The notes below the pieces were generated by a model. The model was not told where the DNA came from, did not search any database, and saw only the letters and a list, made by a program, of their open reading frames with translations. Both the position numbers and the translations under genes were made by a program. Below, one piece after another: positions 12,900 to 61,606 of a DNA stretch of 64,000 nt (position 1 is its first letter; every line of letters begins with the position of its first letter). Origin of the DNA: Octopus sinensis (Eukaryota); the NCBI RefSeq assembly GCF_006345805.1, contig NC_042998.1, positions 64,480,001-64,544,000 on the forward strand, written 5' to 3'.

Positions 12900-15800
12900 A
12901 TCTGCGGATGTGGTGCGCGGTAACCCAACAAATGGCCAGCTTCACCCAGATGTGAGAAGGGCAGCAGCTGAACAACAATCTTTTTTGTGCATGGCACAAA
13001 AAATTGTTCAGCAGCTGACCTGGCTACAAGCACAAACCTGGAACTACCACCACATAAGGCCACCACCAACAGACGCAGGATGACCACCACAGACACCAAC
13101 ACCAACACACAAACCACAAAAATATTTCTACTGAACGTAGGTGGGCTGCTGCGCGGCAACTGTAAAATAACAATCTCATTCCTGAGAGACATTGTGACAT
13201 GCAATCGAGCTATATGCATGGCACTCACAGAAACGCATCTTGGACCCGATATAGGGGATGCAGAAATACACATGCCGCAATATGCAGTCATACCCTCAGA
13301 TAGGAAAGGGAGGAGCCATGGTGGAGTTGCAATGTACATCCCAGATGACCTCACGCCCCAGGTCCTGTTGTCATATTCAAACTGAGTGTGTGACACTCAA
13401 ATTGTACACATAAGACAATTGAATATCGTCATATGCACTACATATCGCCCACCAGATGCCCCAAATCACTCAGGCATATTTGAATACTGCCTAACGAAAA
13501 TAGGAGAAGTCCTCACCAACCTTGAACAACACAACAGTGTATTCTTCATGGGTGACTTTAACTTCCCCAGTGTGGAATGGCCTGGGAGGGGGAGCAGATG
13601 CTCTCAGGGATGACACACCATCAGCAGGCACAGGCAGAGTCCCTGCTCCATCTCACAAATGCCTCTTTTATGGAGCAAATATTTCTGCAACCAACAAAGG
13701 CAGATAATATACTGGATCTCTGCTTCACAAACAATATGGATATTATCCATAATGTTAAAGTGACGCCGACAGTGATCTCGGATCACAACATAATAGAGCT
13801 GTCTATGTATGGACCAAAAGCCCCCGTAGACACACAGCCTATACGAAGCATCCACCATCTCTCCAACTTAAACTTTCATAAAGCAAACTGGAAGTTGATT
13901 GAGAAAGAGAACCTCAAACAGGATTGGCCTAAATGTCTCTTCACACCGGCCATTAACATGAAACACAAACACTTAATGTCCATAATACAAGCCATATGTG
14001 ACAAATATGTCCCAGTGTGCAGGGCCAGCGCACACAAAAACAAAAACAGGATCCCTAGAGAAAGGAAGGTCCTTATGAGACGATGGACAAGGATTGCGAA
14101 CCGCCTGAGCAAGCACACTAAAAGTTGTGACAAGTCTCGGCTCGAGAGAATGCTAATGGAAATTGAGAAAAGTCTGCATCAGTCCCATGAAAAGGAGAGA
14201 GCAGATAAAGAAGCTTGGGTAATAGAAAATATAAAATCAAACCCTAAAGCTTTCTTTAAGTTTGCCAAAGAGACAGCCACAGTGCACCAGAGAATAGGAC
14301 CTCTCTTCCAAAAAGATGGCTCTCTCACAGGAAATCCCACGAGGATAAGTGAAATACTGAACGAACAATTCCAAAGTGTGTTCACTACACCTCTAGGACA
14401 CAGGCAAGTAAACAACCCAGAAGAATTCTTTGCCACTTTACCTGCGGCCAAAGAGGCAAAAATGGAGTACATCAACACTGAAGATGATATCACACTAGCC
14501 CTTGATGAGATTGACACAAACTCAGCTGCTGGACCTGATGGATTTCCAGCGATTCTTCTCAATTCGTGCAAACGAGCCCTTGCAAAACCGCTACAGCTTC
14601 TTTTTCAAAGCTTTCTTGCAAGTGGTAAGCTCCCAGTCAAATTGAAAGAAGGCGTAATATGCCCTATCCATAAGGGATGTAGCAGAGCAGATGCTAAAAA
14701 TTATAGGCCTATCTTTCTGACCTCACACATCAGCAAAGTCATGGAACGAATAGTCCGCAAGAAACTAATCATGTTCCTTGAAGAAAATGACTTGCTGTCT
14801 GACACCCAGCATGGATTTCGACCAGGTAGAAGCTGCCTAACAAAGCTCCTGCAACACTATGACTGAGTGTTAAAACAGCTACTATATGGCTCAAATGTGG
14901 ATGTAATATATCTCGACTTTGCAAAAGCCTTTGATAAAGTCGACCATGGTATGATCTGTCACAAACTGCGTGGTCTCGGCATAGGCGGAAAACTTGGAGA
15001 GTGGCTGCACAACTTCCTAAGAGACTGAAGACAGGCAGTTGTGAGCAATGGAGCCACCTCCAGGGAAACACAAATAACAAGCAGTGTTCCACAGGGCACT
15101 GTCTTGGGGCCACTGCTGTTCATTATGTCCATTTCAGACATGCGTTCAGTTGCTACAATGGCCACCCTTGCTAGCTATGTAGATGACAAAAAAGTCTCCC
15201 ACACAATACACAAAACCCTGAAAATATTGAGCATCTGCAACAGGAGTTGGATACAATATATAGGTGGGCTGAAGACAACAACATGCAGTTTAATGCAGGT
15301 AAGTTCCAGGCCCTGCGCTACCGGCACACAAAGGTAAACGACGTGCAGACTGGATACGCTGGCCCATGAAGAATTGCAATCCCTGAGTCAAATTCAGTGC
15401 GTGACCTGGGCATTGACATGAGCAATGATGCATCTTTCCAAGTGTATGTTACTAATCTGGTGATAAAATGCAGACGGCTAGCTAGATGGATTCTCCGAAC
15501 TTTCAGAACAAGAGAGAAGGAGACACTGATGGTCCTCTGGAAAACATTTGTCCTCAGCCGCTTGGACTACTGCTCCCAACTATGGTCACCACACAATATA
15601 AAACTAACAGCAGAACTCGAAGCAATTCAGAGAAGCTACACAAAGAAGATCGTCCCAATGCAAAATATCAGCTACTGGGAAAGACTGAAAGTATTAAACC
15701 TCTTCTCCCTAGAGCGGAGGCGGGAGAGATATGCGGTGATATACATCTGGAAAATCCTGGAGGGTCTTGTCCCAAACTTTGGCATTCAAAGTTACCCCAA

Positions 15801-36098: not shown

Positions 36099-36146
<48 letters not shown>

Positions 36147-36226
36147 AATTGCAGCGTGGAAGGTGTTTATAAGCCATTCAAGAAACACACAAAAGCCGTT
36201 CGATTCACTTCAACATTTAAGTTTAA

Positions 36227-36276
36227 TTTGTCAAAATATTTTCGTCGCTAAAATCCGCGACCTGTTCACTGACAAA
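36227..36276 (-). ncRNA. Minimal type-I hammerhead fold with swapped G3-C8 core (left arm)
   Basis: Minus strand tttgtca-GTGAACA-g-gtcgc ggatttta gcgac-GAA-A atat T-T-tgacaaa. Confidence 0.7.
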
Positions 36277-36307
36277 GTCCGTGCTGCATCTAAGATACAG
36301 CACGGAC

Positions 36308-36356
36308 TTTGTCAGTGAACAGGTCGCGGATTTTAGCGACGAAAATTTTTGACAAA
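36308..36356 (+). ncRNA. Minimal type-I hammerhead fold with swapped G3-C8 core (right arm, 1-nt deletion in loop III)
   Basis: tttgtca-GTGAACA-g-gtcgc ggatttta gcgac-GAA-A att T-T-tgacaaa. Confidence 0.65.
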
Positions 36357-36498
36357 TTAAACTTAAATGTTGAAGTGAATCGAACGGCTTTTGTGTGTTT
36401 CTTAAATGGCTTATAAACACCTTCCACGCTGCAATTGTTTTCGTTTCAGCACACGATCTCAGATCAAATTACTTGCTATGCGAGTATATCTCCGTAAT

Positions 36499-36531
<33 letters not shown>

Positions 36532-37445: not shown

Positions 37446-37669
37446 ATCGAAGAAGTTTTCAGTATATGCTAGGCCTTGTAACAGGATCACAAATTCTTCA
37501 TGGTGTCTAGGGACACAAAATTGACATACTGTGTGCTTTGACCAATTGTAGACCAGGCGGGAGTTGTCGTCCTTCATTTATGGTCAGAGTACATTGATTA
37601 TAGTTTGGGAGGAAGATATAAAAATATAGACATAGTAAAACAGAACAAATGATCACAGTATAGAATTAA

Positions 37670-38491
37670 TAGAGGATCTTCGTCGATGCCTCCACCAAAT
37701 TTGGAAGTGGTCTAACGATTGGGACCTGTGTCTGAACGTGTCAAAGTGTTGTCATCTGCCTGTCGGCTCTACTCCTGCAGCTCAACTTGATTTCGAGCCG
37801 GGTCGTCTGCTGCTGGAGAGGACCGATCAGGTAAAGGACCTGGGTATCTTGGTGGATTCCTCCTTTTCGCCTTCGGCCCAGTGCTTCCATGCTGCCAACA
37901 AAGCACGCGGAATTCTGTTCTTGATTCGACGGTCATTCGGAATGCTCACAGCAGCCATATTCCTACCACTCTATGTCACCCTGGTGAGACCCATATTGGA
38001 GTATGGGATTCAAGCCTCTTCTCCTTATCTCCTCAAAGACATACAGCATCTCAAAAGAATCCAGAAGCTGGCTACCCGCATGGTTCATGGTCTCAAAAAT
38101 TTGTCCTACGAAGGAAGGCTGAGGACGCTCGACCTTTATTCTCTTGAAAGACGCCGCCGCCGTGGTGATCTCATTCTCGCCCACATCATAAGCGGAAAGT
38201 GTAACCTCTCGAAAGAGCTGTTCTTCACTCCTGCTCCAGAGCGTCGGCTGCGGGGTCATTCCGAAAAGCTCTACCTGAGACGATTTCATCTCAATCGAAG
38301 GAGAGGAGCTTTCTCCGTCCGGGTTGCGGATCCGTGGAACAAGCTGCCAGACGAGATGGTGAAGATGCCGACGACCGCTTTGTTCAAAGCCTCCCTGGAC
38401 CTCAAGTGGCCTGAACTCTTTACATGAACACCACCCTGTACTTAACTCCATGTCCCCCTACATGGCCTTGCTATTTGCTTTTGAGCCAAAT

Positions 38492-38530
<39 letters not shown>
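37670..38530 (+). mobile_element. 5'-truncated CR1 LINE, young, with (AACT)n tail
   Basis: Open frame EDLRRCLHQIWKWSNDWDLCLNVSKC..KDLGILVD..LVRPILEYG..SLERRRRRGDLI..FSVRVADPWNKLP to 38427. Tail (aact)n at about 38493-38530. Confidence 0.95.
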
Positions 38531-38549
38531 TGAAAAGTCCATCGATCAC

Positions 38550-58851: not shown

Positions 58852-61606
58852 GAACGTTGGAAGAGAGAGCGGGATTTAGTTAAGAAACTAGACAAGGCTC
58901 TTGAGACTGGCATCGCGACCGACGTGTTGGCGGCAGGGTTGGCCGTCGACCAACACTTTGACGCCAAACACGAAGGCTGCGTTGTCAGAGCTAAGGCACG
59001 TTCGCTAAGCGGGGAGGGGACTAGAGCCGCTTGATGGGCCCTCGTGGCGGAGGCGAAGCGAGGCAACAAAGCAACCATTCGGTCCTTGGTGGACCAGAAC
59101 GGGCGCGAAGTTACCGAGCCGAAGCAGATGTGTACGGTGTTTCAGCGGCACTTTGCTCAACTGTTTGGGAAAAGCGGTGGAACGCACATTGGTGCAGATT
59201 CGGTGTGTACCTGGACGGCCTACCGCAACTCTCGGACAGCGAGGCAGAGTGCTGCGAAGGACCGATATCTGCCTGGGAAGTGGAGGAAGCGATGAAGAGT
59301 TGCACGAGAGGTAGATCGCCGGGTTTGGATGGTCTGCCCTACGAGCTTTACACTTCAATGCCAGACTTGTTTGCGGGCCTGTTGGCAAACGTCTACTGCA
59401 ACTGGCAGCAAAACGGAAGAATTCCTGCTTTTGTCTGTCGAGGGGTGGTGGCTTTGCTAAAAAAGGAACCAAACAAGGGGGACGTTATAGGGAATTTGAA
59501 AATTTTGGCCAAGGTGCTAGCCAAGAGATTGGCGCTTGCCGTGGACAAGCTGGTCGGCAAGACGCAGACATGCGCCGTGCCGACCAGGTCGATACACGAC
59601 AATATCCATCTCATGCGCTATATCATAGAGAGGGTGGGTAAGGACGCTGGCGCGGGTGGGGCTTTGATCAACTTAGATCAGAGTAAAGCCTTCGATAGGG
59701 TCGACCATCGGTACCTGGCAGCTGTTCTCAAGGCAGCCGGCTTCGGTCCAGTCTTCCGCGGGTGGATAGCTGCTTTATACAGCAACATCTGCTCGGTGAT
59801 ACGGGTGAACGGTCACCTTTCGGAACCGTTCGACATCTCGCTTTCGGCCCGCCAAGGATGCCCTCTCTCCACCCTCTTGTACATATTGACTCTCGAGCCA
59901 TTACTGCGCAAGTTGGCGGCTTTGAGGGGTATCCCGCGCGATCTAGAAGGCGGAAACAGCGTGTCTGCCTATGCCGACGACGTCACCCTGATGGTGTCGA
60001 GCCACAGGCATATTGGCCTGATTGGCGAGACACTAAACGAGTACGAAGCGGTGACAGGGGCAAAAGATTAACGCGGAAAAGTTTGTGGGCTTGCAACTAG
60101 GCACCTGGAGAGGCAAGCCCATGCCGTCCAACAGCGTCGTAGGGCGCTAGACAGACGGACCCGTTAAACTGCTCGGGGTCTGTTTCGGTCCGGACCTCCA
60201 GTTGGATAAAAACTGGGAAGAGGTGACGAGCAGGGTGGCACGTCTCACCCAGAAATGGGCCGAGAGGAAGCTGTCCCTGAAAGGTCGAGTGGAGGTGGCA
60301 AATGCGTACATCGCATCCGTCATCTATTACCGCTTGACCGTCGTCCCTTGTCCTAACCGCTGGTTGGCCAAGCTGGTACGCCTGCTCTTCGACTTTTTGT
60401 GGAAGGGTCAGGTGCCACTGGTCAGGCGATCCATCTGCTGTCAACGACCACTGAACGGAGGCCTTGGAATGCCGTGGTACTGATGCGCAGACATGCGCTC
60501 AGACTGCGACATCTCAAGCGTTTCCTAGACGGTGAACAGGTGTGGTTGTCTTTTGTCAGACGCGACTTTCCGCAGCTCGTCTCTTTGACAGAGCTGCAGA
60601 CCTGGATCAAACGTAGACCGAAAAGGGCGCTTGGCACCTCGAGTGCCGTCAAGCTCTCTCCGCCCTCCGCCAGGCGGGCAATGCGATCGGTTTCAGCTCC
60701 ACTCTAGCGTTCTATAGAGGGTTAGTGCAGGGAAAAAGGCGACGACGTTCTCGGGGAAAATCTAGGGGTTGACGATAACGAACTGAGCGGTCTGTTCGGA
60801 AGGACTTTTTGGCCGGGGCCAATGGATAATTTCCAGAGGTCGCTCGCCTGGCAGTGCTACCGAGGGGCTCTGCCTGTTCGGGATAAACTCTACCGGCACG
60901 GAAGTGCCGTCAGCCGGGCCTGCCCGAGGTGTTGCCAGGACGACGAAACCGTTCTGCACGCACTCGTCCAGTGCCCGAGTATTGCTGAACTATGGGTTTA
61001 TGTTGAACAGCTACTGTCACGTGTAGGACGGATCCAGCTATCAGCCGAATCCATAGTGAAGATTTCCCCACCGACCTCCTTTAACAAGGAGGCCGAGGCC
61101 GTTTTCTTGTGCCTAGTGGCTGTGGCGAAAGAGGTTGTATGTTGGACCCGTTTGAAAGGGCTAAAGTCAGACACTTTCCTCTTTGGTCAAGGCCTCATCA
61201 ACTTTTTCAAGTTTCACTTGAAAAGGAAGATGAGGTTAGAGAGGGGAGTGCTGTCCGATAGCAAGTTTTCTGAAAGGTGGGTGAATTGTGCGAGAATGCC
61301 AGTATAAATGGACCAGTTCTCAGGTTTCGCCTGTGATTCAAAATGGTAATATAAAAGGAGAAAAGGGACTCTCTACCCCCCATTTTGACCAGACTCCCGT
61401 TGGCTTTTATGGGGTTTTTTCCACCAGGAACCTTTCGAAGCGCCTCCCCCTATTGGGAGTTTTTCCTTGTTACAATTTTTCGTTGTTAAACTGTTTTTAC
61501 ACGATTTTTTCACAAACGGACAAAACTCTTTGTAACCTTTCGTCCTGTTTTGTCCCTTTATGTTTTCTAATCATGTGTGTCAGCCCTTGTGGCCAATAAA
61601 AAAGAA
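58852..61606 (+). mobile_element. 5'-truncated Tx1/L1-clade LINE ORF2 (RT plus C-terminal zinc knuckle), inactivated
   Basis: SPGLDGLPYELY, LDQSKAFDRVDH, RQGCPLS, AYADDV, GGLGMP and CPRCCQDDETVLHALVQC. Several frameshifts and stops. GC-rich relative to flanks. 3' UTR ends aataaaaaagaa. Confidence 0.93.

Follow-up and report, generated by a model that had tools for sequence, protein, structure and literature searches.

The hammerhead motif described here carries G3 and C8 in place of the canonical C3 and G8, and this swap is the state of a repeat family across at least three organisms. The motif was found in an inverted pair of arms lying in (TA)n, within a 64-kb stretch of AT-rich animal DNA with many microsatellites (hereafter the window, meaning that stretch at its full length). 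It is probable, in our view, that the feature is the 3′ end of a Penelope-like element (PLE) bearing a minimal hammerhead with a fixed G3-C8 pair, which most plausibly works like the minimal hammerheads (min-HHRs) of PLEs. Judging from sequence, we give a little less than an even chance to the bolder proposition that G3-C8 is an active natural core, fixed in a repeat that ranks among the most abundant of this animal lineage and independently arisen elsewhere, in a phage contig.

An inverted pair of arms within a (TA)n microsatellite

The features of the locus are the following.

36104..36142, no strand: (TA)n microsatellite, left target (sequence)
36143..36291, minus strand: left arm, an inverted 5′-truncated copy of the 3′ end of the element, reaching the inner end point and without tail (blastn, 98% to the right arm; junction)
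36227..36276, minus strand: minimal type I hammerhead motif of the left arm, with G3 at 36269, C8 at 36264, palindromic helix III intact and predicted cut at 36234/36233
36292..36292, no strand: centre of the palindrome, 1 base separating the arms
36293..36440, plus strand: right arm, a sense 5′-truncated copy (arm alignment; family coverage)
36308..36356, plus strand: minimal type I hammerhead motif of the right arm, with G3 at 36315, C8 at 36320 and predicted cut at 36349/36350
36441..36498, plus strand: extension of 58 nt (the tail), on one side only and part of the family (contig coverage, junction)
36499..36530, no strand: (TA)n microsatellite, right target (sequence)

Aligned with blastn, the arms 36143-36291 and 36293-36440 differ in 3 of 149 columns (2 substitutions and 1 indel). 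The indel is one A missing from loop III of the right arm, where nearly all other copies have it, and the palindrome of that loop is kept in the left arm only. The original prediction had the motif present twice, over 36227..36356. Its elements are placed as given and both arms do carry the motif, but the element is larger (36143-36498), and the two arms are a single duplication or insertion event, so that they amount to one observation and not to two independent ones. In other copies, seen in public contigs, the sequence upstream of the arm differs from the inverted arm, and the palindrome is therefore specific to this locus.

A minimal hammerhead with a reversed 3-8 pair

On the plus strand of the right arm, stem I (36308-36314/36350-36356, 7 bp) leads into a core with G3 at 36315, C8 at 36320 and A9 at 36321, followed by the extra G (36322) and by stem II (36323-36327/36336-36340, 5 bp), which opens with G10.1-C11.1. 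G12 lies at 36341, A15.1 at 36344, U16.1 at 36348 and U17 at 36349. The left-arm motif runs on the minus strand from 36276 to 36227, with its AATATT palindromic helix III intact. Each arm has the core GTGAACA, one extra G, GAAA, a short helix III, U16.1 and U17, and the stems, core, extra G and U17 announced for each arm were all recovered at their coordinates. The residues expected of a type I hammerhead are present (U4 G5 A6, A9, G12 A13 A14, A15.1-U16.1 and H17). The literal consensus has C3 and G8; the motif has G3 and C8, and these can form a Watson-Crick 3-8 pair. The description of a core off consensus only at positions 3 and 8, with the pair restored, is accurate, all other core positions being matched. 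Traits of the PLE min-HHRs are also found, namely an extra base between 9 and 10.1, G10.1-C11.1 and a short palindromic helix III (the palindrome being privately lost in the right arm); the extra base is a G, outside the H of the min-HHR consensus.

Folding of the isolated motif recovered helices I (7 bp) and II (5 bp) in the minimum free energy (MFE) structure, with z-scores of −2.4 to −3.5. The MFE structure also pairs G3 with U17, which lengthens stem I, a pairing absent from the earlier description.

To estimate chance expectation, we used a descriptor allowing any Watson-Crick 3-8 pair, which retrieved only these 2 sites in the window. Equally good sites numbered 0 in 40 dinucleotide shuffles and 0 in 150 order-2 Markov windows; a looser descriptor gave 0.175 sites per window in shuffles and 0.007 in Markov windows. 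An Rfam scan of the window returned no match at gathering score; with the limit relaxed to E 10, 36100-36520 gave 31 matches, none of which belongs to a hammerhead family (clan CL00010). Rfam misses the motif. Matches of 36100-36520 to Rfam miRNA and snoRNA families, all below gathering score, were discarded as hairpin artefacts.

Near-perfect 149-bp inverted repeats in a TA context, together with a motif that lacks an Rfam hammerhead match, would also fit a foldback DNA element or a palindromic MITE in which a hammerhead-like string occurs by chance. We consider this very improbable: the palindrome is local, the family extends 58 nt beyond one arm end, and the chance rate was 0 in 190 simulated windows.

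The 3-8 pair in public contigs

The arm, or part of it, was present in 22 of 24 public runs (11 studies, organisms A to D). Four runs from 3 studies were aligned to 36293-36470 at 80% likeness, and variants with a share of at least 2% were recorded. These runs were X12 (organism C; 6,357 matching contigs), X13 and X9 (organism B; 14,682 and 6,522) and X19 (organism A, whose RNA status is a guess; 432). Such contig numbers indicate a very abundant family. Forty variant rows were listed, and 5 further places are known from tallies of change types only. By these tallies, two of the five are C>T changes in X13, and the other three are one A>G and two T>C in X19; X12 and X9 were fully accounted for.

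Among the variants listed, none reached 2% between 36308 and 36337 in any of the four runs. At G3 no run showed a variant reaching 2%, and at C8 the same holds for X12, X9 and X19, X13 having the 2 C>T without a listed position. The tallies place every G>x and C>G change elsewhere, and at this share reversion to C3 or G8 was seen in none of the four runs. At the other core positions, no variant of at least 2% was found in the three large runs, save possibly the 2 C>T of X13, while X19 has changes at G12 and C11.1 in 10-12% of its depth (2-3 contigs). Loose ends before 36347 yield a consensus for the main subfamily, in which loop II differs but stem II and A7-C8-A9-G are the same; this consensus begins at A7 and is too short to reach G3. 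Each indel listed either lies in loop II or puts back the A of helix III, and with it the palindrome. We take the common 36347 T>A to be the allele with the helix III A in an ungapped alignment, as the two jointly account for nearly the whole depth there. We conclude that the G3-C8 swap characterises the family in at least three organisms.

In the stems, the sole common variant was 36352 A>G in stem I, at 11-22% and one-sided. No compensatory double-sided stem change was seen among the aligned contigs, and loop II varies. The proposed check, whether GTGAACA is the family consensus with covarying stems, showed G3 fixed (C8 in 3 of 4 runs) and, among the aligned contigs, no double-sided stem change. 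The prediction was to fall if other copies failed to conserve G3, C8, the core or the stems; checked on public contigs, it stood. These figures are to be read with the depth over the core, which is 6-15% of peak as loop II variants clip the alignments; conservation was therefore measured on a subset leaning toward similar copies, and most of the data come from organisms B and C. CpG sites within the ribozyme appear less decayed (0.05-1.2%) than two CpGs further downstream (3-16%), but this difference was set aside, being confounded by the alignment bias.

A family-wide swap might also descend from a dead or near-dead hammerhead, the change having occurred in one master copy and been amplified since, as insertion needs no cleavage, with stems persisting by descent or as a protein-binding hairpin. 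We consider this unlikely, if worth weighing. Family-wide identity may merely reflect a recent burst. On the other hand, two transversions exactly at paired positions, with the rest intact, are what selection on the 3-8 pair is expected to leave, and subfamilies differ by a replaced loop II yet retain the same stems and core.

The carrier element

The feature would be the 3′ end, or pseudo-LTR region, of a Penelope-like retroelement family with a high number of copies, and the (TA)n insertion would consist of a tailed sense copy and an inverted, 5′-truncated, tailless copy. We infer PLE membership of the family from its architecture, i.e. 5′ truncation, an inverted truncated copy, a one-sided tail and a hammerhead near the 3′ end. 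As hallmarks of PLEs, the portion of PMC8557442 covered describes 5′ truncation, (TA)n targets, a tail on one side and, next to the copy, a second one that is inverted and truncated. Contigs run on through 36441-36470, and 57 X13 contigs exit into (TA)n at 36440, so that the family ends at either of two points, which lie 91 and 148 nt beyond the predicted cut. According to the covered part of PMC11167929, the PLE tail is the interval between two reverse transcriptase (RT) start sites downstream of the hammerhead; the tail here is 58 nt, against the 30-40 nt described for PLEs in the text covered. One contig joins 36438, through a TA run, to the sense flank of 36308, and represents a head-to-tail copy. 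A separate joint in X13 links 36364 to 36308 with one base between them, at a depth of 431, and may be a 58-nt hammerhead-only tandem.

No RT or GIY-YIG gene linked to the family was found at the locus, and a scan of 16 of the 81 ORFs gave RTs of LINE-type appearance elsewhere in the window. Two short frames downstream of the motif gave no protein homologues in a low-power search. A 31-codon ATG-started frame runs on the plus strand from 36406 to the tail end at 36498; it has no homologue found and could start the ORF of the parent element. Short family words were absent from the consensus file for Naiad, Chlamys and Hydra (Craig et al. 2021).

The empty homologue search and the lack of a match to the Naiad, Chlamys and Hydra consensus text would also suit a real ribozyme on a short non-autonomous element, retrozyme- or SINE-like and of ∼200 nt, mobilised in trans. 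So would the weak consensus upstream of ∼36290 (agreement 0.54-0.56 in the three large runs), where many copies may start. We regard such a carrier as quite unlikely. Metazoan retrozymes, in the covered part of PMC7229834, have canonical type I hammerheads in tandem repeats, and, as far as the PLE literature covered goes, a tail with an inverted truncated copy is a PLE signature and heavy 5′ truncation is normal for PLEs.

Other repeats were noted in the window. LINE-type RT fragments (RVT_1, a weak endonuclease match and zf-RVT) occur at 415-876, 13562-14866 and 59025-61307. A GC-richer open frame without Pfam match, at 37639-38531, ends in a (TAAC)n run; we take it to resemble the 3′ end of a CR1/L2-type LINE. 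Next to it comes an apparent mariner-type transposase in a decayed state.

Expected activity of the swapped core

C3 and G8 form a tertiary pair, and in the anole PLE hammerhead the double change C3G/G8C partly restores cleavage (PMC11167929, part covered). In a full pairwise scan, the G:C swap alone among the double mutants of the CUGA region gave a strong rescue (PMC9901934, likewise covered in part). Chemically, the swap is anticipated, and the natural motif may be active. With the swap family-wide, Rfam blind to it and engineered C3G/G8C regaining activity, the view that this is a natural covariant motif missed by pattern searches has held up.

In transcripts of tandem copies, two motifs would pair through the AATATT palindrome, or the protein of the element would aid folding. 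Motifs so paired or aided would cleave slowly after U17, with G12 as the base and the 2′-OH of nucleotide 8 as the acid, held by the reversed 3-8 pair. In the text covered, cleavage by min-HHRs is weak and requires either a dimer or a lengthened helix III (PMC4209133), and the anole PLE hammerhead needs the protein of its element to cut (PMC11167929). The self-duplex of the AU-only palindrome is marginal, at −0.2 kcal/mol. As modelled, the G3·U17 pairing and the extra G may dampen activity. A G as extra base reportedly impaired a viroid hammerhead in work by de la Peña and Flores in 2001. We liken the G3·U17 pairing of the MFE structure to the C3-G17 pairing, a known trap (PMC3884650); the same paper mentions, from unshown data, that G3-C8 performs better when combined with G17 than with C17. 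An extra G also occurs at 9/10.1 in motifs of the Hydra clade (PMC8557442, part covered).

These points bear on descent from a dead hammerhead, which the G3·U17 pairing and the extra G would favour. In the covered part of PMC11167929, hammerhead mutants insert normally in vitro, cleavage being dispensable for PLE insertion, and a dead motif could therefore hitchhike; in the same part, no RNA-seq reads ended at the cut. Against it stands the rescue of activity by the swap in engineered constructs (PMC11167929 and PMC9901934, parts covered). A working G3-C8 hammerhead of the PLE type remains our preferred reading for the family.

For the locus itself the outlook is different. Folding of the RNA of the locus gave a hairpin of ∼149 bp (−259 kcal/mol, z −39), and each strand of the locus carries one sense motif. 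Since either strand is transcribed with the antisense arm first, the RNA of the locus should fold into this ∼149-bp hairpin and bury both motifs. One hairpin of the whole RNA, with one sense motif per strand, makes activity at the locus unlikely. The palindrome, a by-product of PLE insertion, should silence both motifs here and not supply a dimer. From the fold we infer that this motif is an inactive copy and a likely substrate of ADAR; palindromic repeats and lizard Penelope are heavy ADAR targets (PMC5625713, part covered). A>G and T>C changes made up 25 of 38 variant places in X19, against 3/13, 4/20 and 2/12 in the other runs (Fisher p 0.002-0.011), a comparison of one run (organism A, guessed RNA) with organisms B and C. 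This excess hints at A-to-I editing of family transcripts, read without matched DNA. Over 36293-36470, it includes changes in GAAA.

G3-C8 in viral, prokaryote and metagenome sequences

As a control for the rarity of the swap, viral contigs were searched with stem II held to one sequence. For C3-G8 the estimate was about 1,900 matches, with 114 of 126 examined folding; G3-C8 gave 18 matches, only one of which (L014) folds well; and the unpaired G3-G8 control gave 37 matches, with 2 weak folds of near-identical sequence. Near absence of G3-C8 from viral hammerheads suggests that the swap is disfavoured, a further point for a dead descendant. L014 (= L422) lies on the reverse strand at about 95-35 of a 169.7-kb viral (phage) contig and has a complete type I fold with G3-C8, 5-bp stems I and II, a long helix III and A17. 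It is a singleton without relatives, and gave no Rfam match at E 0.5. A second hammerhead-like viral locus, L008, was rejected for want of a valid helix I/III junction. A further locus, L171, resembles a type III hammerhead (Rfam Hammerhead_3, 34 bits, below gathering score) with a 2-nt core insertion.

The family-specific pattern had no match in metagenome contigs. A looser G3-C8 pattern gave 3 weak, chance-like folds there among the best 120 of ∼1,800 loci, and 3 weak folds in prokaryote genomes among the best 120 of ∼750 loci.

Significance and comparison with known hammerheads

In structural work on the active hammerhead core, the tertiary pair between positions 3 and 8 is the central finding, and reversing it to G-C is a routine rescue control in the laboratory. 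Fixation of the reversal in a family of thousands of distinct contigs is a natural experiment on the dominance of C3-G8. It lets one ask whether N17 and the 9/10.1 base co-adapt, and it bears on whether PLE hammerheads are under selection for catalysis. Ribozyme censuses based on CUGANGA or Rfam undercount. If the core is active, a hidden class of reversed-core hammerheads has been missed by Rfam and CUGANGA descriptors, and the family could rank among the largest natural ribozyme sets in these genomes.

G3-C8 is a natural variant of a known ribozyme, apparently unreported in nature. A catalogue of PLE hammerhead variants by Lünse in 2017 is said to be large and could include it. In the literature covered, natural 3-8 pairs are C3-G8 or U3-A8 (with one U3·G8), and G3-C8 was found in engineered uses only, for a scope that stops short of Lünse 2017, Przybilski & Hammann 2007, Arkhipova 2017 and Hammann 2012. 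Natural G3-C8 is likewise absent from the covered parts of PMC6155905, PMC6765202, PMC7229834, PMC6962438, PMC10085705 and PMC11014351. A word search of the Perreault 2011 supplements was uninformative, as it found neither G3-C8 nor the U3-A8 positive control. In the Craig 2021 supplement, six G3-C8 words occurred at 14 places, none in an evident hammerhead context, though line breaks may hide matches. The idea that Naiads 'lack' hammerheads owing to the swap was dropped, being unsupported by this word search.

The nearest relatives are the min-HHRs of metazoan PLEs (Cervera & de la Peña 2014). In the part of PMC4209133 covered, they share with the octopus family the type I topology, the 9/10.1 extra base, G10.1-C11.1, the short palindromic helix III, the massive dispersed copies and the occurrence of opposite-strand pairs within 100-700 bp. 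They differ in that none of the 56 motifs of Fig. S3 has G3 (53 have C3 and 3 have U3), whereas the octopus family has an extra G, not H, and a stem I of 7 bp. The Hydra, Naiad and Neptune clades of PLEs share the tail and the inverted truncated copy; Hydra and Naiad also share the (TA)n targets, and a microsatellite target bias is cited for Neptune. In contrast to our family, all 34 rows of the hammerhead table have C3-G8 (Craig et al. 2021, PMC8557442, part covered).

Two precedents exist for a changed pair. The U3-A8 covariants (Perreault 2011, PMC3088659, and the Schistosoma PLEs of PMC4209133, parts covered) are also natural compensatory 3-8 changes first missed by descriptors. U3-A8 takes two transitions and keeps a pyrimidine at 3 and a purine at 8, whereas G3-C8 takes two transversions and reverses the pair. 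Engineered C3G/G8C hammerheads (the PAc PLE of PMC11167929, and PMC9901934, with Martick & Scott 2006 as cited alongside them, in the parts covered) have the identical core pair and are partly active; unlike the octopus family, they are laboratory mutants and not natural alleles, in another scaffold and N17 context.
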